Source: Kondoa subrosea
Lineage: Eukaryota
Reading direction: 5' to 3'
NCBI GenBank assembly: GCA_039545335.1
Contig: BCIN01000002.1
Location: 2,448,678 to 2,512,677 of the forward strand
DNA: 64,000 nucleotides
Part shown: piece by piece, positions 23,382-64,000 of the stretch
How the letters are laid out: each line of letters begins with the position of its first letter
Numbering within the stretch: the stretch's first letter is position 1
Made by a program: the position numbers and the translations under genes
Notes under the pieces: model-generated
Told to the model about the DNA's origin: nothing
Seen by the model: the letters and a program-made list of their open reading frames with translations, nothing else
Databases searched by the model: none

Positions 23382-25399
23382 TCATTGAAACACATCCCGA
23401 GCTTTGACGGGCACAAAGACTTTGGTACGAGCGGGCGATGCTGAAGGGAAAAGACCATAATGACGAGATTCGCAAGACTTGTTGAAAGCTGCCCAATCGT
23501 TGATGGCTAGATGACACATGAGCACAGTCTGAGTGAGAGAAGAGCGACTTGACTCACGTGGTAAATCGACTTGCATTCCAGCTGAATTGAACAAAACAGG
23601 TCGCCATTCAGGTTTCTCGAGGCGAACAGCAGAATTGCCTGTTTGTGATCTCGAGGAATGCGAAAGTTGGAAAGATGCAACTCACGGAAATGCTGGACCA
23701 AAGTAGGCAGACCCTGATCTTTTGCGAAGCACATCTGCACCAACTTAGCGCTGTGATCTGGTGCCCAGTGAGTTTCAAGTTTGGTTTGAGCGAAATGAAG
23801 TAGAGCAGCAGATGAGGTGAAGTTGACGAATGCGTAGCCTACAGGACCGTAAGCTACAAGGACAAGCACAATGTAAGACAGACCTAGATTGTTTTCAGTC
23901 TTGAAATCGATGCGCAGGTACAAGAAGTTGTATTGACCAGGAACGACAGAATCAAGGAAGTCGAGCAAGTTTTGTTGACTCATACGATTAGCAATGTTCT
24001 GTGGTAAGAGGCGGTCAGGACGGAGCAACAGCCTTGCTAGATTGAACAGCCAACCCACCTTGAGCATAACAGTAGTTCTCTTTTCTTGACCACTTGCAAT
24101 TCTGTCCAAGTCAAAGTGATTGTAATGTGGTACATCTTCCGTAGTGCGCAAACTACCAAAACGTTCTGAACTTTTCTGCTCGACTGATTTGGATAAAACA
24201 GGTGGTGAGCTGAAGACATCGCGATCCGGTTGAGCAAAGATGTGAGGAGCTGCGCTGAAGCGAAGAGGCAATGGGGAATCTGCCGTAGATCGTTGACGCG
24301 AAGGCGATTTCGTTGGATCGCCATGAATGCTACGGAAAGCTGGTGGTGAAAATGGATCGCAAGTGTCGACATCGGTAAAGAAGTCGAAGAGGGATGCGAT
24401 AGGTTGAATGCCATTGATCAACATCTGATGCAAGTGAGCGACCGCTTGATGAGCTGCTCGATCATCAAAAAATTCGACAATGAAAGCGCTCGATTCGGTC
24501 AAAGTGATTGACTTGACAGCACCAAAGCTTGAAGTAGCTCGACGAATCATGTGAGCATCTGCTCCAGCAATGTTTTCGATGCGAATGAAGCCTTCACAAG
24601 CTGAAATAATTTTCGAATGATGATCCTCAGGAATGAGCTGGCAGACATTTCAGCATCACGCGATAAGAGCGGAAGAATGACATACATTGAGCAGCTCGTT
24701 ACGAGACAAATGAGTCAAAGCGAGTTCCAGACCAGCTTCAGAAAAACGATCTTCCATTTCGAGTTTGGACATCACAGCTGGGATGAGATTGATGTCATGC
24801 AAAGCCAGAGCAATCCATCCTTCTTTAGCAAGCTGATCAACATAGACGCGCATATCGCCGTACTCATTCTGTGAGAAGCAAGATGAGCAAAAAACACATA
24901 ATTATAGCTCTGCGACAAGTCACCTGCAAGATCTGACGCAGAAAGTTCCGATTGATGTGCTTGTCAACTGATCTGATGACAATGTAACGCTTATTCGAAG
25001 CGAACGCAGCAGACAACTGAGCGGAAGAAGAGGGTGTTGCATGGGCTTGAGTGAATGGCGAAGAGTGAGATGCTAAGCGACGGTGAGGAGGTGTGTATGA
25101 TGCAGAAAGACCAGGTGATAGATGAGCAACTCGTTGCTTCTTTGGACTTCTAGATGCTGGTGGTGTCAAAGGGGAAAGAACTGGATTGAAAGTCTTGTTC
25201 AAAGGTCGACCTGGCGTGTAAGGTGGTGTGTCTGGCAAACGGAAGGTAACGGAAGATTGCCTTTCAGTTGGAGACTGCGGTGCATGCGATCAGCTTGCAG
25301 ATGAAGGGTAGTAAGAAAGGAACTGACGTTCAAAGACATTTCAGCCAAGGTAGTCACAAAGACATCATGATTGTTTTCAAAGATCGGAGCAAGCGACAT
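23382..25399 (-). CDS. Mei2-like RNA-binding protein (RRM + C-terminal RRM_2)
   Basis: FIVEFFDDRAA RRM; RTTVMLK|NIANRM..YNFLYLRIDFKTENNL|GYAFVNF is the Mei2 RRM3 signature; 3' end approximate. Confidence 0.85.
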
Positions 25400-26100
25400 G
25401 ATAAGCTAAGAGAGCAAGCGCTGGCCGGGTTCAAGTGAAGGACAAGCTGTGCTGAGAAGTGAAAGTGCGAATGCCAGACAGATTGCTGAAACAAAAGTAT
25501 GAAAGCAGGAGCAAGAGGCGCAAGAATGAAAGCAGAGGAGATTTATAGTGGCACCGGCATCGCAAGAAGGATCAAAACAAAGCTCTTCGAGATGAAAGGA
25601 TCTACATTTTCAGCCTTTCACGAGAATGTAGACCACTTTAGGCGAAGAAAAGCGCATCATTAGAGTCGCGCTGATTCTCTCTATCGAGTGGTACTATTTC
25701 TGTTCTTGAGTATGGCCAAATGAAGGAGAGCATTGACTTTGTTGTTTTCGACATCGTCGGAACTCGTTGACGCGCTCGTCTTGGTGCATCTTCTCGATAG
25801 AAAGTTATCTTCTTGATGAAATCCTGCCTTACGCTCTTGTTCAAGTTGGTGCAAAGTCACTGTCCGGAATAACAGTTGGCTTTGAGGCCGACCGCATGCA
25901 TTTTTTGTCCACTCCGCCTCTCTTCCTCTTTCCAATTTCATCTATCCGCTACAGTACAAAAGATTCAACCCTGCCATGCTCTGTCGAAGCTAGAAATTGC
26001 CAACACCTGTCGCTTGCATTTCGAAATCCATCCTTGATATCTCCTGACCGAAGGCTTCGTTTTGGGCTATAATCTGCTGCTCGCTTGGTCTCAAACAAGC

Positions 26101-47793: not shown

Positions 47794-49652
47794 ATGGTTT
47801 CCTCTTTCGTTTTTGCGCTGGTCGCTTTCACTTTGTTTCATCTGCAATTGATTGCAGCTCATATGGTACGCGATGCTCGCCCTAAGTCGATGCAATTCTG
47901 ATGAATATCGACTGTAGAGCATTTTTACGCCCGCGATGTGTGCGTTTGCACCGTCGATTCTGTCCTGACAGTCATGAAGCTGATCTGCAAAATCTAGATG
48001 GGTGGATGAATTGGTCTGTCCGCCTACCAATACAGTGCTGGCATTTATTGATATACTGAGATAGGCCTGATGAACCTCAAACGCCGCTGGTCAATCTGGT
48101 CAGTCGAGCGCAAACATTGAGAACCGCTATATTATGCTAATTTGTAACTTGCAGCCTTTCGAGCAATGGTGGTTCAGAGGCTACGTATGCTCTACAGTCT
48201 CTATGGGAGGCAAGCACTAATAGATTCGCAGACCAATCTACCGACTGGCGGAAAGGTGCGTTGCGCAGATCTACTTCAGGTGGGCCTGAAAGTGATAGAA
48301 CTGAATCATACAGGTCGAGGAACTTACCGCTGGCGGTGTCTTTACTGCTGAAATCGCTTGTCATGTCGCTTGGTAGGCTCTGGCGTTTTTCTGGGAAGTA
48401 CAACGGTCTTATAAAGCATTTATAGGACGAAATATGGCTCGAGAACAGCAGAAGCTGGTAAGAGCTCCCTTTGCAATGAAACAGCAGAACTCTCTGACAG
48501 CTCCCTCAGACGCGGCTGGACCGAGAGATGCTTGTCCTTCTGGTGATAACGCTGGACCTTACCATGCTTCACTCGATCCTACGCTTCCTCGTACGACTTG
48601 TCTCATATCCGGAGACAGTATCATGATACTCACTCGACCTTGTTTTAGTACCGGACATCAATGGAGTGTCGGGATGCGCGCTAGCTATTGCCGACGTAGA
48701 CGATGTGAAGAAAGTCACGATGGATGATCTGACTGTCTTCTCTGTCAACCGTAAGCTTACTTCTCTACAAAGCTACAGTACCTGAAAGACCAAAACAGAT
48801 ACTTGCGTTTACCGCAGAGCGACTGATTTTCATATTCCTGCTAATATGGTATCTTCTCGTCCTATCGTAATGCGCTCGCGTTGATCATGTCTGTAGCCAA
48901 AATGTACCGGAAGTAAATGTATCGTGAGTTATTTGTTTAATAGTACTGGTCGCTCACTTACGCTGTATGAAAAAGTGCGTTTGGCTATGGGAAGCCAATT
49001 ATGGACAGGCGAACTATTACATGACTGGCTTTGACTGTTCGATTCTTCAGAGCAAGACTGGTCTGCCTGCAATCGGCAAACCTCAAAGACCTCTTTGGAC
49101 AGGCAAATATCCCGTAGTCAACGGTATGTATATCATCCAGCATGGCACTGTAACGCACTTAAACTCCCATGCAGGACCAAAATTACCTTTCTATGCTTGT
49201 AAGCTCTTCCTGCGACATCGGGTTTCAAAACTCATCTGATTTATCAGACAACGACCGTTCGACAGCAGAATGGTTTGGAAATGACGCGAGACCAGGCTAT
49301 CATGAATCGTGTAAGAAAAGAATGCAGATTCCCTCTGATGATGTTGCTGATGCATAACTATAGACGGGTTCAAGGATGGAGCCCAAGATGACATTTTCGT
49401 AAGTTCGCTCCAGAAAAGGGATATCCTGGCTCATAGATGCGGTAGACTGGTGCAAGCACCGATATCAGCGTAGCTCTGACAGCTGGCCCCGCGATTTCAA
49501 CCACCACAAGTAGCTTGCAAGGCCCTGCTCTATCGACCCATTCCCGCGGAGCAAATCGCAACAGTTCACCACCAAGCCGTAATGCCGCAGTTCAACCAAG
49601 AGCAATTGGTGCTCACCGGCGACGTCAAGAAAGAAGCAACAGATACGCGTAA
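47794..49652 (+). CDS. AA14 lytic polysaccharide monooxygenase, copy 1
   Basis: Signal peptide then His1 (LIAA|HM), FEQWWFRG, AEIACH, GPYH, SGCALAIA..TVFSVN.TCV, CVWLW..YYMTGFDC, matching the recalled AA14 pattern; basic disordered tail. Confidence 0.82.
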
Positions 49653-49914: not shown

Positions 49915-51723
49915 ATGGTCTCTTCTTTTCTTTTTGCGCTGGCCGCAGTCTGCTCTTCTCAATTGGCAATCGCTCATATGGTCTGTCTAGCGCCCGATGC
50001 TGCTGTTTTTTTGCACTGATATGACAAAAATGCAGAGTATCTTTACTCCTGCCATGTGTTTGTGCATCCTTTATTGTTTCTGCTATATCTGATGTTTGGT
50101 TAGATGGTTGGCAAAACTGGTTCGGTCTTCCGCACATGCACCTCGACACTTTCTGATCAATCTCTTAGGCCTGACGAGCCGCAAAGTCCAATGCTGGATC
50201 TAGTGAGTCTTGGAGATCGAATTATGATCAGTATCTCAGATGTAAAAAAGCCTTTCGATCAGTGGTGGTATGCAACCCTGCGCGCCGCAGAGACTGCACA
50301 CTCTGACACTGATAGCTCAGGTTCCGTGGATATGTATGTCTAAAAAGCTTTCTCATGGAGTAAGAGCTGACGCAATGCGGCAGACGAATTTGCCAACCGG
50401 AGGGTTGGTAGAAGAACTTCCTGCTGGCGGGAAATGGACGGCGCAAATTGCCTGTCATGTCGCTTGGTCAGTGCTCAAGCCATACTGTTGGTTTGCGTCA
50501 CTGAAACAACCTGTACAGGACGAAATATGGTTCGAGCACTGCGATTGCCGGTTAGTTTCCTTCACCAACTGCAAGACCCCGCAGCTAACTTGGCTTCAGA
50601 TGCTGCTGGTCCTCGAGATGCCTGTCCTAGCGGAGACAATGCCGGACCGTATCATGCTTCATTCGATCCAACTCTGCGTTGTATGTCTCAATAAATTGTC
50701 CATCAGGCAAGAATCTGATCATGACTTTAGTGCCCGATATTAACGGCCTTTCTGGATGCGCTCTTGCTATTGCTGATGTTGACGACGTTTCGAAGGTCAA
50801 AATGGATGACTTGACCGTATTCTCTGTCAATCGTAATTTCATGTCTCTCAGTGCCATAGGAATGCCTGACAGAGTGACAGATACCTGTGTCTACCGTCGC
50901 GAAACTGATTTCGCCATTCCCGCAGCTATGGTGAGTCTTTATTTGGCATTATAGAGATATAGTTTCTGTCATTGATATTTTCAGCAGCCCAAATGTACGG
51001 GGAAGAAATGTGTCGTCAGTTGACCTAATTGACTGGTACGATGCCGACTCATCATATCTGTTCCAGTGCGTGTGGCTATGGCTGGCGAACTATGGCACGG
51101 GCAACTTTTACATGACAGGTTTTGATTGCTCTATACTTCAAAGCAAGATCAATCTTCCAGCAATCGGCAAACCTCAAAGACCTCTTTGGACAGGCAAATA
51201 TCCTGCTGTCGAAGGTATGTTTGCGCAATGGGTATAACCTGAAAGCGCTTATATGACTCTTTCAGGGCCCAAAATGCCTATCTACGCATGTAAGTCTGTC
51301 TTTGCGGGCTGTACATGGGGCTCACATGTTAGCATAGACAACGAGAGATCAACCGCGGAATGGTTTGGCAATAATGCGAGACCAGGCTATCATGAATCAT
51401 GTAAGTAACGAACTTCCTTGCTATGATTAACCCTGACCATATTACAGACGGATTTAAGGATGGCGCGCAGGATGATATATTCGTAGGTCGGAACTGTAAA
51501 GAAGGGAAGTTGACCGATGTCCTTGCAGACTGGTGCAATCCCTGGCAGAAGCTTCGACACGATTGCGGATAATGTTAGCAGGAACGCTACTACTATCAAG
51601 GAGGCTTCTTCTTTTCGCTGCAGAAAAAGACAGCGTCATACCTCATCCTCGAAACGGAACTACCCAATCCAGCGTCGCGCCAATGATTCACATCGTCAAC
51701 GTCAATACAAGAGAGGCATCTGA
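49915..51723 (+). CDS. AA14 lytic polysaccharide monooxygenase, copy 2
   Basis: MVSSFLFALAAVCSSQLAIA|HM, FDQWWFRG, AQIACH, GPYH, SGCALAIA, CVWLWLANYGTGNFYMTGFDC; tandem paralog of copy 1. Confidence 0.82.
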
Positions 51724-51940
51724 TTGTAAGCTACGGTAACGGAACAGGAGTTCGATATCGGTCGCCAGGGCAACTTGTACCCTTATTAGCATTAGGTTCT
51801 TTTCTTGCATCAATCATCACTTGTAGCTACTGGATAGCCTTCCGACTGAAGACACTGGTCAGCTAGCCGAGAGCGCAACAATTTTCTTTGCTCACAGCTC
51901 TCGCTTTTCAGCCGGATCAGTAGTCTGTCTACTTGCGAGT

Positions 51941-54900
51941 ATGAGACGCGAACCTCCTTCACCCATTCTGTTTTCTACACCTACGAGAGGCAAAGATAGG
52001 TCGCCTCCCAAAACTCTACCAACACTAGGTAAGCCTGTCTTCGCAAATGTCTCGCTTGGACCTTCTCATGCCACGGGGTGCAAACCAACGTCCGTTTTAC
52101 AAAACGGACATCAAGTACGTAATTTTGGCCATTTTCTGGCCGATGCCCATTCCCATATATAGCTTGTTCTACTAGATAGTACAGTTCTATCACGAATCCT
52201 TGGACATAGCTTCAGTCCCTCTCTAAAGGTAATCAGATATGCGATCTCGCGGTTTTCGAACACTGCATCTCTCTTTATTGAGTAAGCTACATATACTACT
52301 TGTTCGTAACATATCCAGCTGACCTAGTCTAACATTGCCTCGATCCTTTCCGCTAGCTCGTGCGCTTTCCCTTTGCCATCTTTGTTACGGTGCTTTAGAT
52401 ACTTCCGAAGAGCGGTAACATTGTAATGCCGGTTCGAAGGATCTCTTGACAATGTAAAACCAATCAGTCGCTTCTCCTTTGCCGCAGCCTCGATCTGCTG
52501 GAACAGATGCAGATCCCCTCCACTAGTAGCTGGGAATACTGGAACAAATCAGATGATGATATGTAGTCGCACTATATCATGCTAACCTTGTGCATCTGCA
52601 GGGGCCTTTTTCGAGCTGATAGGTCGTTCCTTTGTGTCGCGCTTCTTCTCGACAGGTAAGCTAGACTTTTCCATTCTTTCCGCAATTGTCACCTCCTCGG
52701 ATGCTCTTCGCTTTTGCCCTTTTGCAACATCGAGACCTTGATCTTTTGCTGCCCAATACGTATCAAGAGCAAGTACGAGCGAGGTAGAGTGGAACATGAT
52801 AGATAGCAAAATGTCTTCCTTGCACTGAGCCTTGCAAAGACTGCTACGTAAAAGCTGGAACTGCTCTTCTGCTTCCTCATCTACATTCGCGCATCTTTTG
52901 ATGGTTATGATCCGTGGTAATGTAGAAAAGCGAGCCAAGAATGCGACTAGCTTGTTGGACTTGACATGTTTCAGACGTTGTACACAGCTCATCAAGTCTT
53001 CAAGGTTTCGACGCCCTTCTGCAGCCGACGGTCTCTTCTCCAGAGGTGCAAGACTCCACTGCACAATGTTGCTAAACAGTTGGCTGACTGAAGAATGAGG
53101 TATTTCATTTCGCATTTCGGTAATTTTGTAAAAGGCAGTACAAAAGAGCCGGAAGACGACAATATTGACCGACTTCTCAAATTGTGGTGGATAGTAGCAC
53201 ATTCTGAGTGAATCATGCTCTTCCTTCAAGCTGGAGATGGTGTTCGAAACTCCTTGTACATCGCAAATACAGAGCAAATCAGACGGAAGCGGTTCCTTTC
53301 CTAAGCGTTTGAGAGGGGTGATGTATATGCCTTCGCGAATAGGATTTGCTGGTAGTGTGGATCGAAGACTCTTCTTCTCGAGAATGTTTGCAAGATGCTG
53401 CCTATGCGTGATGGAAAGATTGCTGCGACGGATAATCAACATGGAAAGCACTGATACTCATGACGTACTCTAAATCCAGCTGGATACTTTGCATGTCTTG
53501 ACAATTTGCTACTGAGTGGGTCAGACCATTGTCAAATAACAGCAGAACAGCGTACGACAAGTAGGTCCAACATCATCTGGCTCGGAGGAAAGAAAGACAA
53601 ATGTCGTTTCTCTAGAGCATTCTAAGGACCAACATTAGACATGCAGATAGCACATCGTTCTTCAGCCTACTCTGACAACAGCGGGAGTTATGAAATTTCG
53701 CGAAATCCACCTTGAGCGTTACAGAAGATTGTGACATCGGAATAATCGCGCACTGTAATCAGTCTGAGCTCAATAATACTCATGTGTGCGCATCAAGATC
53801 TCCTTACCGAAAGGAAGCTGTTGTAGTTTGAAGGTAGCAACAAGCGAAAGCTGATTCTTTAACTCTGAGCTTGATGTATTCAGAGTCACCGATAGGTACA
53901 GCAGGCAGGCGCAAAATGCAGCAAGTTTAAGACTTCGAACCGGAACTTGATGAAAGATGGTTTGAGAGAGAGCTTGATTCCGTTACGCGACAGCCGCCTC
54001 TTGACAAACTCGAACACGACATATAGCTAGAGAGAACCATTTCTAGACGCGCTGAATGTGCTAGGCTCGTGTTGTACCAAGGGGCTGCGCAAAGTCGTCT
54101 ATCTCCCTAGGCGTCTCAACTTGCTGCCATTCATTCTTGATTGTCTGCGTAGTCCCTCATAACCGCCAGCGGCCCAAGGCTGGCTGGAGCCAACTTCTAG
54201 TCGTCTTCCTTTTTCAATCATTTCCTTGTGTATACTTATTCGCTGCTGCGTATTTCTGGTGCTGCCTGTCCTCCTTGAAGCTGATGGCAGAAATCACGCA
54301 GGCCATATAGACCTGCTTCTTCAGGTGACATGCTGGTATCTCCATAAAGCTAGAAGCTTTTCTTTTCGAACGGCCTGCTTTCCGTTGCACTGACTTGGTA
54401 GAAATTTCAGGTGTTGACCTGTACCATGATCGGACTCGCTGACAGATCTCAAGACTCTTTGCCTCTCTTCTTTTATTGCGCTCCTATTGGAGTGTCACAA
54501 GCGCGTCTGCAACAGTCAGACAGTCTCGCCGAAGACATCGGTGTATCGCTTGAATCAGTTATAACACGCCTGCTACATTTCTACGTCGTCTGCAAGACCA
54601 AGGTCTACCTTACTGCGTTCTGCATCCTGTATCTTTTCACTTGGACATCATCGTATTTGATTATCTTCCCTGCCACCATCCTACCACGAGCTCTACGAGT
54701 ATTCTACCACGAGCTCTATGAGTATTCGTGTCAAACACAAGCATATGGACCAGACTGACCAAGTTCAGCAGCTTCATTAATCTCAGGATTCAACCGGTCT
54801 CCATGATTGATCAATCTTTGCTGTTTTCTCGTTCAATCCAATCATAAGGCGTATATTCAGAGCATCGCTATTATCTCCAGTAATCATCTTGAGTTTCAGA

Positions 54901-57373
54901 TGACCTCAATAATTTGCCACCTCAGAAATCTGGCGCGAGAGTTCTCAGGTGGCAAAACATGTCTCAGATTTGACTGAACCTACAATGCTGTACAGCGTGT
55001 TGTGAGGCTCTAGAAAGACACCTAGCAAATAGGAATGAGTTATAGGTGAAGAGAGAACAGGATCAAGTGATGCTTACTGTACAAATTGACTTGCTCGAGA
55101 GTCTAATCGCTATGGAAGCATGAGAAAGAAGAGATAGCATGCTTAGTTGTGCTCAGCCACGCTATACAAAGCGACCTGAGCAGATCAGGAGCTTGTGAGG
55201 AGTGTTCTCGCATCAAGCTCGACTTTGGTCTCCAGGTCTGCTGAGCAATAAATCCGGCTGACAGACTAGGACACGATTGTATGGACGCAAAAAAGCAGAT
55301 ATATCAAGATTCCACGAGAAATGCATTTTGAATATCAAGCTGTGAACGCACGCAAATAAGAGATTTCTGCAGACATGCGGCTACGAGTGCTGAGGATGAA
55401 AGCTGATACAGCAGTAAAACGAGGAAAAGCAAGGGTGCTTTGTCAAAAGAGTTGAAAGTATGTTCACGGAGTCAGCTGCTGTCTCCTCAGGCAAGTTTCA
55501 TGACGATAGCAATCTCGAGATATCATTTGATTATAAGATGACACTCAATGAGTGACATTCTTCAAAGGCCAGAGAAGATACGAGAACGAATAGTGTGAGA
55601 ATGAGGCTAAAGAGAGAAACATACACAAGACAAGCAAGCAATGTGCATAGAAAGCAGTTAGCGAGAGTTATAGGAGCGCTATGCACGACTTGGTCAGCTG
55701 TAGTACTAGCTATAGCTCTTTGTAGTGCACATGTACTTGTAATGGATGTTTGGAGTCATAATTCCTACGAAAAATGTCTTAGCCGAAATTCATGAAAGTG
55801 GGAGCTGGCTCATTCGCTCCAGCTCCCTTTTTCTTTGTTTGCCGACAGTCGAGTCCTATACCCTCACCTATCAACGAGCAAGATGCCATAGAGAGCTCTG
55901 ACTTGCCCTGGACTCTGCTCGTACACTGAGCACATGTGCACGTGAAAGTCCAAAAGTTGGCCAACTTTTGGATTGAATGGCTTTTCATTGACCGCCGTCA
56001 AGTGTGGTGGCTCATGCTTCCGTATTCGGACTTCTGACTCTCTTTAACAAACATTCCTCTGTTCTTGCGCAATCTTAGAGTCCTGCGACCTAAGAGAAAG
56101 AAATCTGCTGATCCGGTCAACCTGGCCTTACTCTATGTCTGCCTCTAGAACTCAACTCTGTGTCTGCCTCTGGATCTACAGGTGAGCTACTGCCTATAGT
56201 CTTATGTCAAGCAATGACAGGCATCGCTGACTGCCAAGCTATCTCAGTTTCATCTATTGCCCTGGATCTTTGGATTAGAAGCCTGTAAGTGATCCGGGCT
56301 GATTGGTTTGTCAATTGTTAAACTAAACGATCTTTGATATCCGCAGGTTTGCTTCAACTCTCTCAAATGGGGATGATCTCTTCGAAACTCTAATTACTTT
56401 TGCTGCAAGTGCCTATTGCCCTACTTCACGCAGCTGATCTTTGCTTCCGTTCTCAATTCGACTAAACGTTCTCTTCCCAGACCTTTCATACCTCGTGCGG
56501 ATCTTTTTGGTAACGCTGATGATGTGGTAACGCTGATGCTGTGGTCAAATATGCTTTGGAAGGTCACGATCGCGGCGTAATTGAGACTTCTTTCTATCCT
56601 CTCTTCCTTTGATTGGTGCGCAGGCTGAATATTATTATTACGGCTCAGTAAGTCGGCTTTGCTTTCTTGTAATTTACAGATTCGTGTACTTATTCCTTGT
56701 CTGAATTAGCGGACTGCCAGAGCTACTGCTCTGATTCAGATTCAGCGGCGAAAGATCTATACCTTATAGACTTTGTGAAATATTGGTACACCTTTAAGGT
56801 CAGACTCTTCCTTTAAGGTGAATCTAATTTTGCTCTGGCTTGCTTTGATCGTCGATGCTGACATTCTGCTCATAGGAAATGATGCTTTGACGACTCTCTT
56901 ACTTGAAGAGAGCTATTGCTGTTGAGTATGATCAGGAAGAGCAAGAACAACGGATGTCACTTTGGGTTCATCTCAATTCAATACGATCATAGTTGTACCT
57001 AGTCTGCTAATCATAGCTTACGATAGCTAGACCTGTTGACGAGACTTCTCTTGTAATCCATATGTCAAGCGGATCGCGAAAAACGCGACTTCTATTCTGA
57101 CGATTGTTTATTCAGATACCACGACTTGCTTAGTTTGCGGTCTTACTGGGTGAGTGCTCTGTACATACCTAAGCGCTACTAGGCTGACTCAGTCTCTTGC
57201 AGTGGAATTCGGTAGCTTCCCTTCACATCTCACGCTGAGCTTGGACTCACCAACTTTTGGCTGCTACAGTAGCTTCTGGTGGTTGGAAATCAGTACTTCT
57301 CCTATTGGATCAGACTGCTGTGTGCTCTTGGCATGGCGGGCCTTGAGCTGGGATAGGAGCAGGAGCAGAAGAG

Positions 57374-57414
<41 letters not shown>

Positions 57415-60400
57415 TACATCACGAGATTGGTCACTGCTGGCCCTCTATACCTTCTTCTATAGTTGCGAAGTACAACTCTCAGCTTTACCTAGTGTATCAC
57501 TCCTTTCCGAAAAGCTTGAATCACCATCTTCCTTGAATCTCGTCAGCTCATTGCAAAGTCCATATCTCTACCTCTATCAAAATGGGCTGGCGAGGTGCTC
57601 ATGCTGCCGTTCGCCAATTGGCACATGTCAATACACAAGTGTTGGATCGCGCAACATCTTGGGAAGAAGCTCTACGAAAGATAGAGGAGCAGATCAAATG
57701 CCAGCCCTGTAAGTTCCTCTTAGAAGCTGACATGACTGTTCTAACGGCAATCGTCGAACAGGCGCAGATATTGATGGCACTGGTATTCTTTGGGGTCCAA
57801 TAAATCGACTGAAACGAGATTGCTCGTATTTTGGGCCGTTCTTACACCTACATCAGCGGCGTTTATGGTTTCCTACTGAAGAAGCTTCCAAAGTCTGGCT
57901 AAAGAAACAATCTTTCACCTTCGCTGGCGACTTAGCTGATCGTCTGTCGGCAATTGCATCGCAAGTCACCATGACTTTTGATGATCGAGACAAGTCATCT
58001 AATGCTCTCGGCAAACTACATACGCATAAAGATCGCAAGGCAATGACGCGCCGAAGGAAGCACCTCGCTACGCAAGCATTGAAAGAAGCAGTCATTGTCG
58101 CAGCTCACTTGGAAAGGCTTCTGCTGCAAGATCGGGGTAAAAAATTCAAGGACAAGATCAATCGTGCCATGGTATCAACATTGAGAAGTCGTCTTCGTCA
58201 TCTTTTCAGCACATTTCATCGGAACTGCGATGCTTACTTCGACTTTCCTTTCGCGCCATCGGACTTCGAAGGCGACTCAGCAAGGTTATTGCTAGCAGCA
58301 TTTCCCCCATCAACCTCTCTTCACCTAGAACAGCCAGCTTCTTTGCACAGACCTGCTTCCTATGACTCTGACGCTATCGCCTTCGAAAAATCTTACATAC
58401 ATGCTAACTCTGAGCTGGTCAACTGCAGAAGCCAAATTATCCTCGTCCGATCTGGAGATGAGGCGGACAACACCATTGTCAGGCTTCAGAGCGCCCGAAT
58501 TCAGTCTGGTCTAGCAAAGGCAGCTAGTACTGTCATTATAGCCAACGACTCCGACTTCTTCATTCTTCGACACTCCGACATCTACCGATTCGTTCTTAGT
58601 CAAACAAGCGTCAAATTTCTACCAAACGCAGCTGTCCAGCAATACTCAATCCTTGACAAAGTAGCTCTCGAAGACACATTCGCATGGCCAGAAGAAGCTT
58701 GGCAAGCTCAACAACTAGCTCTTCTGGCTGGTCAAGACCTCACTCGCGGTAAAGGTCTGCCAGGTTTTGGAGTCAAGACTTTGCTTCCGTTGCTTGATTA
58801 CATGGACGTGAGCTGTCCCGTTTATACTTGTAGTGATAAACTGAATATCATACTAGCGAAATCCCGAGGTCACCTTGGAGAACTTCAGAGAGTTATGTAA
58901 CGAGGAGATAGCTCAAATGCCAAAATGGAAGAAGCTCAAACAACAATCCAAATGGCACAAATCCCTGATATTGCTCGAAGATGAAGCTTTCCGTGCCGAA
59001 TTCAAGGAGGCTGTTTTGGTTCTCACCTTTCTGTGTCACTCCTTCGTCTCGCCTTCCTCTCTTCCAAGTGATGTTGACGCCGATCAATCAATATCTATAC
59101 CTGAAACTACCTTCGGACCCCATCTTAAACGCAACCTTATCTGGCCCTTCACCTTCTCTTTTGAACATCTTCTTGATCACCCTGATACAGATCCAGAACT
59201 CCTCTTACCAGATCATCCTGCCAGCATAGGCGTTTCTGATCGGCCGTCCAAAGCTCAACAGACCCTCGAGTCGAAGCAAATAGGAAGGATGCCATCTCTT
59301 CGTCCTGAGAAACGAAAAGAATCGAAACCACCGCAATGGTCAGCTCTCAGAATGGAGCGGAAAAGAAAGAAGAAGACGAAAGTGGATTACGATCAGGTCT
59401 TCGCTGAAGCAGCACGCTACAACAAGCACAATTACCCGGAAGCAGCTGCGAAACATAAGGTCGCAAGTCTGGCTGCGCAGAGAAAGAGAAAGTTGGCAGA
59501 AGAGCTTGGCGAAGACTGGAGTGATTATCGAGACACAAGCGTTGAAGAACTGGAAGCGGATGCTGGTCTCTTTGCTGAACAGGCAATCGATTATCTGGAG
59601 GGACAGGAGCAAGAGGAAGAATCACTTGAGACAGCAACTAGCCAGGCGAAGGGCAAAGGCAAGAAGAAAGAAAATGAGAAACCAGTCAAGAAGCCTAGAA
59701 ATCTCCTAGCAGCTTACGTTCCTTCAGTCACCATACGCGGCGCTTGGACACTTCTGCGTCAACATGTCCTTCTCGCCAATTCCCCGTACCAGACACCGCT
59801 GTTCGAAACCACTTCCCTAGTCTTTCTCTGTCAGCAAATCGGCCTCTCTTCACTTCTGCTGTGTGTAAACTATTGTCTTTCGCAAGCCATGGTCTCTGAG
59901 AACGCTGCACTGCTCGAACGATACTCTGATCCAGATCAGCTTGTCAAAGTCATTTTATGCATCGCTCAAGTTATTACTCTGGCGAAGAAGCCGACCGATG
60001 AGGTCTTCAACCAGAATCCACAGCAGTTCAAATTCTACTCCGATCAGCTCAAGAAGTCTGCCAGGTTTCAGACTTTTTTCGAGAATAAGATATATGCCGA
60101 TGCCTTTATCGACGCTTTGGAACCAACCGTTCTAGCTAGAATCCGAGAATACGCAGAAGTGGATCCCCTCATCATACAATCGGTTCAGTTGCTTCTGCTT
60201 GATGACCTACCTCTTTTACCTTATATCGGTTCAGCAAGTGATATGTGGGTTGATGTATCGACGAAGATAGCCAGCAATATCACGACTTCGGCCAAAGAGG
60301 ATCTACAAGATTGCATCAAACGAGAAATCTTGAGGTTTATCGGCAACATCAAACCGTCAGATTCTGGTTATCGTGAAATCAGGAAGGCTCTCAAGTTTGT

Positions 60401-63342
60401 CAAGAATACTAGTTTCAACCTTGTATGCGAGAGTCAACTGGCGCATTGGCATGCAGGCGAAGCGCAAAAGATACCGATTGATGCCTCAGCTCGCTTGATC
60501 AAGGCTCTCCGGCATCGCAACAAGCACAGTCAGAATCTCCCAGCTGTAGCCAATATCATCATCAAGCATGTCATCCATCCTATCTTAGCCATTAGAGATC
60601 AGGCCATCAACGTCAACGGTCTGACGGAATTGGATGTCCGCAATCTTATCAGCAACCGCCCAGTATCGCTCTTCCGCTGGCGACATATTATGATGCAGCA
60701 TCAAGGCAAAGTGCAGGGCAATATGATAGTTAGCCTATTCTTCATTTCAATTGCGCTAGCAATACTGATACTTCTGATAGGAATTTCTCCCCTCCTTTCT
60801 GCCTTTTAATGTGCATGGACTTCACCGCATGGTATTCTATCCAAGAGAAGTCGCTCAGAATTGTGTCGAGTGGCTGAATGATGAATTCTTCCCTCGCTGT
60901 GTTGGTGTTTTGGAAGCAAGTGCTGAAGAAGATCCAATGCCTGTAGCTGGATCAACCACTGCCTCGTCTTTCGCAAGTACAGCAGCGCAACATTCAGATC
61001 CTTACGCAACGCTAAAGTCAACCTTTCCGCAACAAATGGCCGGAATTCTCGATCAGCTTACTTGTCTGCAACACAATGATAAATCGGCACTTCCTCAGAA
61101 TCCAAATCAGAAGAAGCGGAACTCAGATTCGATCGGGCGCAAGCTTCTCCGCAGCGCAATGGGAGCTGCACCCGCAATTCATGTTCAGCTGAAAGAAGAC
61201 TTTCTGGCAGCAGCTGAACTTTTTGCGAGACAAACCGCTCAGCACATTGTGCAGAAAGATAACATGTCATCCGGTTCTCTCGATGGCAACCATCTTGCGC
61301 TCGTCGACTATGTCTTCAACACGAGCATACTTCCAAAGTACTCTGTGGCTACTGGCAGCTTCCAATTTGATGGCTTTGCGATAGCTATGAATTGCGTGGA
61401 CGTCTCTCGAGGTATCATGCCAGCTCTAAATGGCGCGACCTCCATCAAAGATCAATTCCTTTCGGTTTGCAAACAGATTTCATCACCTCTCTTAAGCAGT
61501 CATTTTGCCGATAAAATCAAATGGTCCGGCAAGACGCATCTTATCACACCTACATCATCTGCAGATGACAACCTTCAAGACAGTGTACCCAAAGTCGAAG
61601 TTGAGATCAAACCGACTTACTGTCTAGCAAGTGAAGGTCAATGTCGGTTAGACGGTATGACCCGACAATACGTCAAGTTGGCTTTCATCACCAAAGAGAA
61701 AACTAGAAATGGTGTACCAATATCTTTGAAGAAGATGAGCGATAAGACTTTGGACAAGTTTAGAGAATATGTGCTGGATGGAACTATGGTACGCCAGCTA
61801 ATATACATTCGCAGTAATCAGGTCTCATCTCGACGCAGGATATTGATGAACAGCTTTCGGTGCAGCCTGCGGATATGCATGTGGACGATAAAGATGCAAC
61901 AGAGGAGCAACCGGAACGGAAAGAGCCTACTGCGGACATGAGAGTCGCCAAAGCACTAGAAGGTATCGCAGTTGTCGGTCTGGATCAAGGTCATGCTTAT
62001 CCTGCTGCTTGGTGGATCAAGACTTTCAATCAGGCAGGCAACCCTGTTCAGCGGCGGATATTGCAATCGCCGAAGTACCTGCAAGAACTGATCAAGATCC
62101 ATTGTCGAAATCACACCGCTGCACGGAATGCTTTCGTAATTGATCTCGCCTGGTTGAAAAAGTACAATGACTCGGTACAAGAGAATTCTCCAAATTCAAG
62201 GGTCGCATTCGCTCAAAGAACGATACACACTTTCTTTCGAACATCTCGCGTCGTCCGGAACGAGGCCTACCTTTTGCGCAAGCGCCAACAACAAGCTTAT
62301 GATCGAATAGCTGCGCAAGTACTTGAAGCTTCCGGGGCAAGAGCAGGGCGCTTCAATCATTCGGAAGGCACTGCTAGCACTTACACAGAGCCTAGGATCA
62401 AAGTCATCTTCGCTTTTGGCGCGGATTGTGGTCCAGCGCAAGGTATCAAGACGCATTCAGCAGACTTCCGAAATGGCATTCTTCGGGCAGTAGCATCAGA
62501 AGTTGGTCATCAGAACGTTGATGCTATATGCATGCTGGTGAATGAGGCGTTCACTTCACAAGTATGTCCAGATGCATCGTGTTTGCGAGCACCGGGAGAG
62601 GATTGGATGGATGCAAATACAGAGAGTGTCGGCTTCGATTGGATACGATCTTCGTATGTGCACTCAAACGTTGGTGATTCTCACTAAGTGGTCTATCGCA
62701 GCTTGCACAAACCACATTTCGTCGATTCTGGTAACAAGTGCCAGAGAGTTCTGCAATGCGAACAATGTCGGCGAAAATACAACCGCGATCTGGCGGCAGC
62801 ATGCAACATTGCCTTTGTCGCTTGGCATTGGCTGGTTTGGGGTTGTCACCCATTTGACCGAAAAGAAGGTAAAGCATACAATATGTTTGCGAGATTTTTC
62901 TGACCAAGATCACAGATTTCCCGGTTCAGTCTATTAATGCAACCGATGGTGCTTAGCACCGCAGTATCGTGCGTTGACAAACTAACAATTATATCAGAGC
63001 TGATTGTTTTGTTCTACTTCCTTCTCTTATCCTCCTCACCTCTCTGACAATCTCGTTTCTATACGCTTTGCAACACGTAAGCACGTCTCGGCTGGGGTAT
63101 CAACCTGTCTCACTCCATGACAGGATTACCCGGATTTAACGGACATTATGTCCCTTGGTAAAAACGGACTTCGATTTGTACATAGTGTGCCGTGTCCAGA
63201 AACTGCAGTTGCAAAACCTCATGTTCGCCTTGCATCCCAAGGCGTTGCTATATCTCAATTACCTGACCTGAGGGATCTGGAATTCAATATGGGCAGAGGG
63301 AGATCAGGGACAGTTTCGTCGATTGAGTCTTTTGAACTTTGA
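51941..63342 (+). CDS. Small host gene (76 aa when spliced) whose intron is interrupted by the element; exons 51941-52028 and 63200-63342
   Basis: Donor GTAAGC at 52029 and acceptor TCCAG at 63195-63199. Removing the element plus one TSD leaves a 52-nt intron and the in-frame product MRREPPSP...PTL-E-TAVAKPHV...SGTVSSIESFEL*. Confidence 0.65.
52072..52120 (+). repeat. Left terminal inverted repeat with GTCCGT/ACGGAC subterminal motifs
   Basis: Starts with CAC and contains the inverted repeat GTCCGTTTT-AC-AAAACGGAC; matches the reverse complement of 63139-63187. Confidence 0.85.
52324..53737 (-). CDS. Element-encoded ~408-aa protein, Cys-containing N-terminus and C-terminal SAP-like motif
   Basis: Five exons join in frame (1227 nt by manual count); N-terminal CCQKC...CLANC; C-terminal YNVTALRKYLKHRNKDGKGKAHELAERIE resembles a SAP helix-extension-helix. 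Confidence 0.6.
54681..54726. repeat. 23-bp tandem duplication
   Basis: CTACCACGAGCTCTACGAGTATT / CTACCACGAGCTCTATGAGTATT, one mismatch. Confidence 0.9.
55800..55827. other. GC-rich hairpin near the centre of the element's intergenic region
   Basis: GGGAGCTGG-10 nt loop-CCAGCTCCC perfect 9-bp stem followed by a T-rich run; function unknown. Confidence 0.6.
56130..56179. repeat. Imperfect 25-bp tandem duplication
   Basis: ACTCTATGTCTGCCTCTAGAACTCA / ACTCTGTGTCTGCCTCTGGATCTAC. Confidence 0.75.
56491..56620 (+). pseudogene. COP1: Captured fragment of coatomer alpha (COP1) WD40 region
   Basis: After removing one copy of a 17-bp duplication (56509-56542) it reads ADLFGNADAVVKYALEGHDRGV..SFYP(T)LPLI, matching recalled alpha-COP DLFG..DAVVK.VLEGHDRGVNWA.FHPT.PLI; frameshifted. 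Confidence 0.75.
57374..57414. repeat. (AACAGC)n microsatellite, ~7 units
   Basis: Read directly from the sequence. Confidence 0.95.
57582..62956 (+). CDS. XPG/FEN1-like PIN+H3TH nuclease fused to Fanzor (TnpB-like) RuvC/zinc finger, ~1,690 aa
   Basis: Introns 57709-57761, 58808-58856, 60729-60780, 61789-61838, 62654-62701 and probably 62869-62915 (47-53 nt, GT-AG) join all ORFs in frame. N-terminal MGWRG, DIDG, TFDD, EAD, NDSDF, AGQDL..KGLPGFGVKT. C-terminal FQFDG, VVGLDQG, VNEAFTSQVCPDASC, CEQC..YNRDLAAACNI. Confidence 0.88.
62957..63207 (+). ncRNA. Candidate Fanzor omegaRNA (scaffold in right end, guide from right flank)
   Basis: Lies between the Fanzor stop and the right TIR. Stems: GGGTA(63095)/TACCC(63127), CCTGTC(63104)/GACAGG(63119), GGACA-TTA-TGTCC (63141-63153). 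Boundaries inferred by analogy only. Confidence 0.45.
63139..63187 (-). repeat. Right terminal inverted repeat (5'-CACTATG... on minus strand)
   Basis: Ends ...TACATAGTG followed by the TGC TSD; contains two ACGGAC motifs on the plus strand. Confidence 0.85.
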
Positions 63343-63511
63343 GGGATGAGAGGATTGCAACTGCTGGATCAGTTGAGACGGGGTATAGGGCTCTGTATGA
63401 TTGTCACTCATTTATTAGATCGCTTTGCGCGTGAAATTTCAAGTGCAAGTTTTTCCCGTTCACCATCTTTAAGTTGAGCAAGAAAGTGTTTGCGCACACG
63501 ACGAAAGCACT

Positions 63512-64000
63512 CTCATCAAGAAGACAAGTTCCTATCAAGAAGATGCACCAAGACGAGCGCGTCAACGAGTTCCGACGATGTCGAAAACAACAAAGTCAAT
63601 GCTCTCCGTCATTTGGCCATACTCGAGTACAGGAATAGTATCGCTCGATAGAGAGAATCAGTGCGACTCTAACGATGCGCTTTGCTTCGCCTAAAGTGGT
63701 CTACATTCTCGTGAAAGGCTGAAAATGTAGATTCCTTTCATCTCGAAGAGCTTTGTTTTGGTCCTTCTTGCGATGCCGGTGCCACTATAAATCTCCTCTG
63801 CTTTCATTCTTGCGCCTCTTGCTCCTGCTTTCATACTTTCGTTCCAGTCTGGCATTCGCACTTTTACTTCTCAGCACAGCTTGTCCTTCACTTGAACCCA
63901 GTCAGCGCTTGCTCTCTTAGCTTATCATGTCGCTTGCTCCGATCTTTGAAAACGATCACGATGTCTTTGTGACTACCTTGGCTGAAATGTCTTTGAACGT
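63512..64000 (+). repeat. Inverted duplicate of 25326-25820 (upstream region and start of the mei2-like gene; ATG at 63927), continuing past the window end
   Basis: CTTATCATGTCGCTTGCTCCGATCTTTGAAAAC... and ~400 bp upstream match the reverse complement of 25326-25820 with scattered substitutions. Confidence 0.92.

Follow-up and report, generated by a model that had tools for sequence, protein, structure and literature searches.

What moves a Fanzor gene that lies between the ends of a DNA transposon, with no recognizable transposase beside it, and where exactly does such an element begin and end? The question is raised by a 64,000-nt stretch of the Kondoa subrosea contig BCIN01000002.1 (assembly GCA_039545335.1, positions 2,448,678-2,512,677, forward strand), the whole of which is called the window here and to which all positions refer. 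Between 52072 and 63187 of this window lie 11,116 bp that are flanked on each side by the trinucleotide TGC and that carry a long gene for a nuclease of the Fanzor/TnpB type. These 11,116 bp are best explained, at a probability of roughly 0.65, as the product of a single insertion: a low-copy DNA transposon that moves by cut and paste, is non-autonomous, and works by the mechanism proposed below.

The limits of the element can be read directly from the letters. An earlier reading, made without database searches (the sequence-only reading), had claimed a TGC-flanked element at 52069-63190, and both its letters and its coordinates are as it gave them. At the left junction TGC is followed by CACGGGGTGCAAACCAACGTCCGTTTT..., and at the right junction ...AAAACGGACTTCGATTTGTACATAGTG runs up to 63187 before TGC appears again. 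The four terminal features, made up of two copies of the target-site duplication (TSD) and two terminal inverted repeats (TIRs), are as follows.

52069-52071, no strand: left TSD copy, TGC, read directly and identical to 63188-63190.
52072-52123, + strand: left TIR of ~50 nt, which starts CACGGGG, found as an inverted match to the right end.
63136-63187, - strand: right TIR, reading CACTATGTAC... from its tip, found by a contig match and by an inverted match to 52072-52123.
63188-63190, no strand: right TSD copy, TGC, read directly.

When the two ends are laid against each other tip to tip without gaps, 20 of the first 27 bases and 35 of all 52 are identical, and a gapped inverted alignment with two one-base gaps gives 35 of 50 identical columns, in good agreement with the 34 of 49 claimed before. 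The tips differ beyond CAC, reading CACGG on the left and CACTA on the right, and the left repeat also contains a palindromic pair, GTCCGTTTT-ACA-AAACGGAC, at 52090-52109. A repeat search over 51500-63700 returned 136 inverted pairs, the longest of which is the TIR pair (43 nt, 72%). A scan of both strands of the 64 kb with the right 52 nt in reverse complement gave 52072 as the top non-self site, with 35/52 matches against 28/52 for the runner-up (gapped local scores of 20 and 14). With independent contig evidence placing the right end at 63187, the case for 52072 is stronger than it would be in a free search.

Short motifs near the tips add to this picture. The window has five GTCCGT and seven ACGGAC sites; of these 12, 4 lie no more than 70 nt from the ends of the element. 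Each end has two exact 6-mers, those on the right being ACGGAC at 63139 and 63164, where a 5/6 variant in the opposite orientation (GTCCCT at 63150) is also found; all lie within ~50 nt. The motif is enriched at the ends, and its recurrence there, as claimed earlier, holds up, whereas its occurrence in both orientations at each end does not, as the exact motif is present in one orientation only on the right. No convincing host open reading frame (ORF) is restored across the reconstructed empty junction, and so the insertion lies in non-coding DNA. By blastn, neither the ends nor the complete element has a further copy inside the window. Overall, 52072 and 63187 can be taken with high confidence to be the correct boundaries.

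A second locus provides a view of the right end that does not depend on the left. Contigs from two sequencing runs of one sample (X1 and X2) were compared with 50001-64000, and all aligned contigs were at least 90% alike. One of these contigs matches 63136-63187 only, with 116 unlike letters before the match and 255 unlike letters after it. This contig departs from the window exactly past 63187, which means that the terminal 52 nt are present at another locus and end there at the same base. This is the base at which the sequence-only reading had put the right end. At 63513, a contig loose end corresponds to the flank of a different, unrelated repeat at its second copy within the window, and it follows that loose ends of this kind mark other copies. 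That repeat is an inverted two-copy sequence (63513-64000 against 25326-25819, with 94% identity across 495 aligned columns; truncated by the window end) that starts 325 nt past the right end of the element. The contigs are about twice as deep there, and its ORFs match no Pfam family.

The gene that gives the element its interest lies on the + strand, where 57.6-62.9 kb is occupied by five ORFs that overlap or abut and lie in different frames. Removal of five GT-AG introns (53, 61, 52, 50, and 48 nt) leaves a single frame of 1,685 codons with one terminal stop, and CTNAY branch-like motifs are found near the 3' end of four of the five introns. Under this inferred splicing model, the long gene (57582-62903, +) would have six exons and encode a protein of ~1,685 aa, with the following parts.

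57582-58807, + strand: exons 1 and 2, a candidate FEN1/XPG-like (PIN-like) region, separated by intron 57709-57761 (GTAAGT...AACAG).
58869-60728, + strand: exon 3, a 650-aa ORF with a charged linker and then a region collinear with relative P0015, preceded by intron 58808-58868.
60781-61788, + strand: exon 4, the middle of the Fanzor protein, common to relatives, preceded by intron 60729-60780 (GTTAGC...GATAG).
61839-62653, + strand: exon 5, the RuvC core, preceded by intron 61789-61838.
62702-62903, + strand: exon 6, the second zinc-ribbon pair and RuvC-III, preceded by intron 62654-62701 (GTATGT...CGCAG) and ending with the stop codon TGA at 62901-62903.

The identity of the C-terminal part as a Fanzor/TnpB-type nuclease is supported by motifs, relatives, and predicted structure. 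The RuvC-I aspartate is at 61983-61985 (GLDQG), the RuvC-II glutamate at 62544-62546 (NEAFTSQ), and the RuvC-III aspartate at 62787-62789 (NRD), and the cysteine pairs of the putative zinc ribbon are CPDASC at 62565-62582 in exon 5 and CEQC at 62757-62768 in exon 6. Exon 5 (61839-62653) has 18 relatives at an expect value (E) of 1e-3 or below among 1.84 billion representative proteins, the best of them 67% and 48% identical, and all 18 are unnamed or called "hypothetical." A 14-sequence profile of these relatives, named A1, shows D49 as nearly invariant and E236, C243, and C248 as invariant. Neither exon 5 nor profile A1 found a Fanzor, TnpB, or Cas12 among solved structures by sequence. The Pfam family Cas12f1-like_TNB (PF07282) matches exon 6 with E 1.3e-4 and 22.5 bits, under its cut-off of 26.3, and it matches the 1,060-aa relative P0015 with 29.3 bits, above that cut-off. 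The NCBIfam models of TnpB and Cas12f match with their C-terminal ends (E 0.0015-0.028), far under their cut-offs.

Structure comparison carried the identification further. An AlphaFold model of exon 5 built on the alignment had a predicted local distance difference test score (pLDDT) of 74.2 and a predicted template modeling score of 0.64. Foldseek returned eight matches at E of 1e-3 or below; seven of these are Cas12 chains, Fanzor chains, or copies of a single de novo design, and the Guillardia Fanzor was matched with E 3.9e-4. In the VIA comparison, all 50 of the 50 matches listed are RuvC domains of Cas12, TnpB, or Fanzor proteins, with Z from 6.8 to 9.9, where a Z near 8 can reflect a common arrangement. 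Given this uniform list and the agreement of the motifs, the long gene is accepted as encoding a divergent Fanzor/TnpB-type nuclease with a predicted RuvC fold and its D, E, and D residues, as the sequence-only reading had claimed of the cargo and as now seen at the level of the fold. Related loci were found neither in metagenome contigs (two scans) nor in viral contigs (one scan).

The upstream limit of this gene can be drawn in more than one way. As an alternative to the six-exon model, the Fanzor protein may begin in a separate frame from the ATG at 58917, which lies 16 nt past the stop of the upstream frame. Exon 3 weakly matches the N-terminus of P0015 in three collinear BLASTP segments (best E 0.003), so that the protein would be long even without exons 1 and 2. 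When used in tblastn, the relatives P0003, P0008, P0013, and P0015 align with 60799-61779 in exon 4. A conserved WIRS motif forms the end of most of the predicted relatives (P0001-P0016) and in the window stands at the start of the 48-nt fifth intron, which suggests that the position of this intron is conserved and that gene callers stopped there. An (AACAGC)n microsatellite of 6.8 units (57374-57414) is located a short way upstream of where the long gene is proposed to begin, and the contigs of the sequencing runs break at this repeat.

A transposase was sought both in the element and in the rest of the window. No transposase family was found by Pfam in the element, whether among its 8 long ORFs or among the 55 ORFs of at least 45 aa of 52072-57800, and the earlier claim that it holds no DDE transposase agrees with this result for all 63 ORFs. 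Likewise, the 111 ORFs of the window outside the element match no transposase family in Pfam. The element is thus quite likely to be non-autonomous.

A transposition route can be proposed for an element of this kind. A DDE transposase encoded elsewhere would bind the ~50-nt ends with their ACGGAC subterminal motifs. This trans-acting transposase, most likely of the EnSpm/CMC group, would cut at the CAC/GTG tips and paste the element with a 3-bp staggered cut. A guide RNA would be made from the 3' non-coding stretch and the right repeat and would read into the flank past 63187. After excision, the Fanzor protein would cut the emptied site and thereby lead to copying-back from a sister or homologous copy. 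Such a copying-back role has been proposed for TnpB and Fanzor, and published Fanzor loci have a guide RNA that overlaps the right repeat, according to Jiang et al. (2023; PMC10530073). The stretch from which the guide would come is defined here by its place between the Fanzor stop codon, which is 284 nt before the right tip, and the right repeat.

62904-63135, + strand: 3' non-coding stretch from the Fanzor stop to the right repeat, defined by position only.

From its position, and by analogy with the loci described in PMC10530073, this stretch is expected to encode the putative guide-RNA scaffold.

Membership of the CMC superfamily is defined by the transposase. The element begins with CACGGGG at 52072 and ends with CATAGTG at 63187, which corresponds to the 5'-CAC...GTG-3' form of EnSpm ends. 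Its TGC duplication, observed for one insertion, has the 3 bp of EnSpm within the 2-4 bp of CMC elements. PIF/Harbinger elements typically duplicate TWA, a pattern that TGC does not follow. KDZ, hAT, and Mutator elements were also considered and rejected, given that their duplications of 7-10 bp contrast with the 3 bp seen here. An IS200/IS605-like single-strand element was rejected as well: there are hairpins near both ends, yet the ends form a true inverted repeat and are flanked by a duplication. On these grounds, assignment of the element (its transposase) to the EnSpm/CMC group has somewhat better than even odds, as an assignment made from structure. Of the earlier label of a CACTA-like cargo element, the bounded TIRs, the 3-bp TSD, and the CAC...GTG tips stand, while the CMC superfamily is a putative assignment.

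It is unlikely that the element is a genuine non-autonomous TIR transposon of a different superfamily, such as PlavakaB or another CMCT lineage, PIF/Harbinger, Zator, or Academ. No transposase partner is seen in the ORFs of the element or of the window, the tips diverge after CAC (CACGG and CACTA), and each end has two or three subterminal motifs. The latter number also weighs on the preferred assignment, as classical CACTA elements have many more short subterminal repeats per end. Harbinger is disfavored by the TGC duplication for the reason given above. PMC12730594 describes several related lineages that share 5'-CA..TG-3' tips and 2-5-bp duplications, which leaves room for such an alternative. 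However, the same source gives TGT..ACA tips for PlavakaA and CATCA..TGATG tips for PlavakaB, both unlike CAC..GTG, and it files fungal elements with CAC..GTG tips and 3-bp TSDs as EnSpm, so that this combination is the exact EnSpm criterion in print. Furthermore, an active CMC element of a basidiomycete yeast has 3-bp TSDs and CACTG tips, as described in PMC12139950 and PMC12810828.

A second explanation questions the left end. Perhaps the right end alone is true, with the match at 52072 and the adjacent TGC having arisen by chance and the real left end located elsewhere or lost, in which case the locus would be an element that is truncated or has one end, or else a pair of unrelated neighbors. 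Several observations make the single-insertion reading weaker at this point. The best long-range ungapped inverted repeat of 51500-63700 scores 19; of 150 random sequences that keep the dinucleotide make-up of this region, 10 reach that value, and as the product of a free search the TIR pair is weakly significant. No contig loose end was reported at the left end among the contigs over 50001-64000, and the inverted repeat, the motifs, and the TGC match alone place the boundary at 52072. Three bases match by chance once in 64 cases, and the length of the duplication is known from a single insertion. The runs X1 and X2 are probably the source of this assembly and hence not an independent strain, and the other locus shares the 52-nt terminus only, its inner sequence being unlike either end when compared by eye. 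In addition, the left half looks alien next to the Fanzor gene, given its 4 kb of gene-poor interior and an orphan gene that is unrelated. Once the right end is taken as given, however, no other site on either strand of the 64 kb comes close to 52072, and the tip-to-tip alignment, the common GTCCGT/ACGGAC motif, and the identical outer 3 bp all argue for a true pair of ends. A chance left end is accordingly rated as improbable.

Other difficulties concern the parts of the proposed transposon rather than its limits. The sequence at 62900-63187 folds no better than its shuffles (z -0.49), and there is no Rfam match within 51500-63700. The intron between exons 2 and 3 (58808-58868, 61 nt) has a weak GAG acceptor and was rejected by a stricter chain filter. 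Moreover, despite the absence of a Pfam match, either the orphan gene or the gene-poor ~4 kb may encode an unrecognized transposase. RuvC folds and DDE transposases belong to the same RNase H-like class. It is nonetheless very improbable that the element is autonomous and that its own unrecognized protein (the orphan or the long FEN-like/RuvC protein) performs excision and insertion: the orphan protein and the N-terminal half of the long protein lack a detectable family and Pfam cannot exclude new transposases, but TnpB and Fanzor proteins are RNA-guided nucleases rather than transposases (established knowledge; PMC10530073), the VIA comparison places the RuvC part with Cas12, TnpB, and Fanzor proteins and not with transposases, and CAC tips together with a 3-bp duplication mark a known DDE group (PMC12730594).

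If the locus is a non-autonomous transposon with a Fanzor gene, a further question is whether the first two exons supply it with a second nuclease. Exons 1 and 2 contain, in order, MGWRGA at 57582, DIDGTG at 57767, TFDDRD at 57974, DEADNT at 58457, NDSDFF at 58544, and GFGVKT at 58763, and the first of these falls at the start codon of the long gene. These six motifs of 57582-58807 resemble a FEN1/XPG N-terminus (MG..G), its acidic motifs (IDG, FDD, EAD, and DSD), and a GxGxKT helix-hairpin. Atlas, an alignment-free method, gave leads to the Pox_G5, 5_3_exonuc_N, and XPG_I clusters for these exons (0.89-0.90). An EADNTI...DTDF arrangement is also common to relative P0012 (E 0.003), where it lies N-terminal to the RuvC part in one open frame.

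Other results count against a FEN-like region. Exons 1 and 2 have no Pfam XPG match at E of 10 or below, a search in which the HMMER filters drop most matches above ~0.1. The ORF at 57731-58900 has no sequence match in the PDB, no phage match by tblastn, and no relatives among longer or near-length proteins, and its single-sequence AlphaFold model is poor (pLDDT 37.5). P0012 likewise has no XPG family match and no relative in the PDB. Thus it is a tentative and rather doubtful proposal, drawn from motif order, that this Fanzor clade is joined to a FEN1/XPG-type flap nuclease, either in one ~1,685-aa protein or through a gene that ends 16 nt upstream. If the FEN part is real, the RuvC domain would cut the emptied donor site, and the flap or 5' nuclease would resect or process the break so that the element could be copied back. 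The locus would then be a non-autonomous transposon with a two-nuclease cassette, and the FEN-like N-terminus would be, as far as could be found, the first case of an accessory nuclease domain joined to a Fanzor. Otherwise the locus would add a well-preserved but ordinary case to an association already in print. In the library searched, no paper contains both Fanzor and XPG, and none of those that contain Fanzor and PIN appears to concern such a fusion, as judged from titles and the first part of abstracts.

The left half of the element is occupied by two further features.

52327-53442, - strand: orphan gene of ~355 aa, composed of a 291-aa ORF joined in phase to a 74-aa ORF by an inferred 48-nt intron.
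53443-57581, no strand: gene-poor stretch of ~4.1 kb, in which the longest exon chain is <350 nt on either strand.

The putative intron of the orphan gene is located at 52539-52586 (GTTAGC...CCAG), and the gene ends ~255 nt from the left tip. Its last exon holds a weak SAP-like motif, with a match under the cut-off (E 0.0042) for the ORF at 52327-52548. The 291-aa ORF matches no Pfam family and has no homologue among candidates of 160-510 aa in a collection of 5.8 billion proteins, and Atlas gave weak helical-repeat leads with low recognition (1321). The statement in the sequence-only reading that both cargo genes are intact holds under the inferred splicing model only. In the gene-poor stretch, ORFs of at least 45 aa yielded no Pfam family past its curated cut-off, and a perfect 24-nt palindrome, TCCAAAAGTTGGCCAACTTTTGGA, is found at 55949-55972.

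The rest of the window is ordinary, intron-rich eukaryotic DNA with GNAT, WD40, homeodomain, RRM_2, and dihydroxy-acid dehydratase genes. A tandem duplication (48506-49404 and 50596-51488, 68% over 929 columns) with an LPMO_AA14-like exon lies directly left of the insertion, and contig joints and extra depth are seen within it at ~51150-51412.

The present copy offers a concrete test case for what Fanzor nucleases do for the eukaryotic transposons that carry them: its ends are exact, its 3-bp duplication is clean, its flank is known, and its catalytic triad appears to be intact. From 63188 on, a prediction of the guide and of its target is possible. The emptied site can be written down as ...CTCATGC|CGTGTCC..., that is, ...CTTCTCATGC-CGTGTCCAG..., with a single TGC, and both the excision and the reinsertion of the element could be traced.

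Comparison with known systems shows how much of this arrangement is familiar. Fanzor genes occur in non-autonomous EnSpm/CMC, hAT, and Helitron elements according to Jiang et al. (2023, Sci Adv; PMC10530073), and a Fanzor gene in a non-autonomous EnSpm-like transposon is an association already published, of which this locus is another, very divergent case. Like the loci in that paper, the present one has an intron-bearing Fanzor gene between transposon ends, no transposase, and a non-coding 3' stretch that leads to the right repeat. Unlike them, its Fanzor is very divergent, with 18 relatives in 1.84 billion representatives, and unusually long (~1,685 aa in the model), with perhaps a FEN-like N-terminus. 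The clade and its EnSpm association may already be contained in PMC10530073.

Among fungal transposons, CNIRT6 of Cryptococcus neoformans (PMC12139950; PMC12810828) resembles the present element as a TIR element with variable 3-bp duplications and tips that start with CACT. As compared by description, CNIRT6 differs in being 7,460 bp long and autonomous, with a DDE transposase and 24-bp repeats starting CACTG, whereas the present element has repeats of ~50 nt that start with CACTA and CACGG, and no transposase was found in it. The fungal EnSpm families of Kojima (2025; PMC12730594) share with it the same terminal trinucleotides, the same duplication length, and the carriage of cargo genes (TET/JBP). 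These families encode an EnSpm-like transposase; in the present element none was found, and its cargo is a Fanzor.

At the level of the protein, the predicted RuvC fold resembles those of SpuFz from Spizellomyces punctatus (8gkh; Z 8.8, root-mean-square deviation 4.3, 166 aligned residues) and of ISDra2 TnpB (8exa; Z 8.5, root-mean-square deviation 4.5, 142 aligned). As in these two, a zinc ribbon, here a putative one, lies between RuvC-II and RuvC-III. The present protein differs from both in its identity of 8-10%, in giving no match at the level of hidden Markov models, and in its much longer N-terminal part. The clade lies at a great distance from the solved Fanzors and so broadens the range of sequences known for these nucleases.

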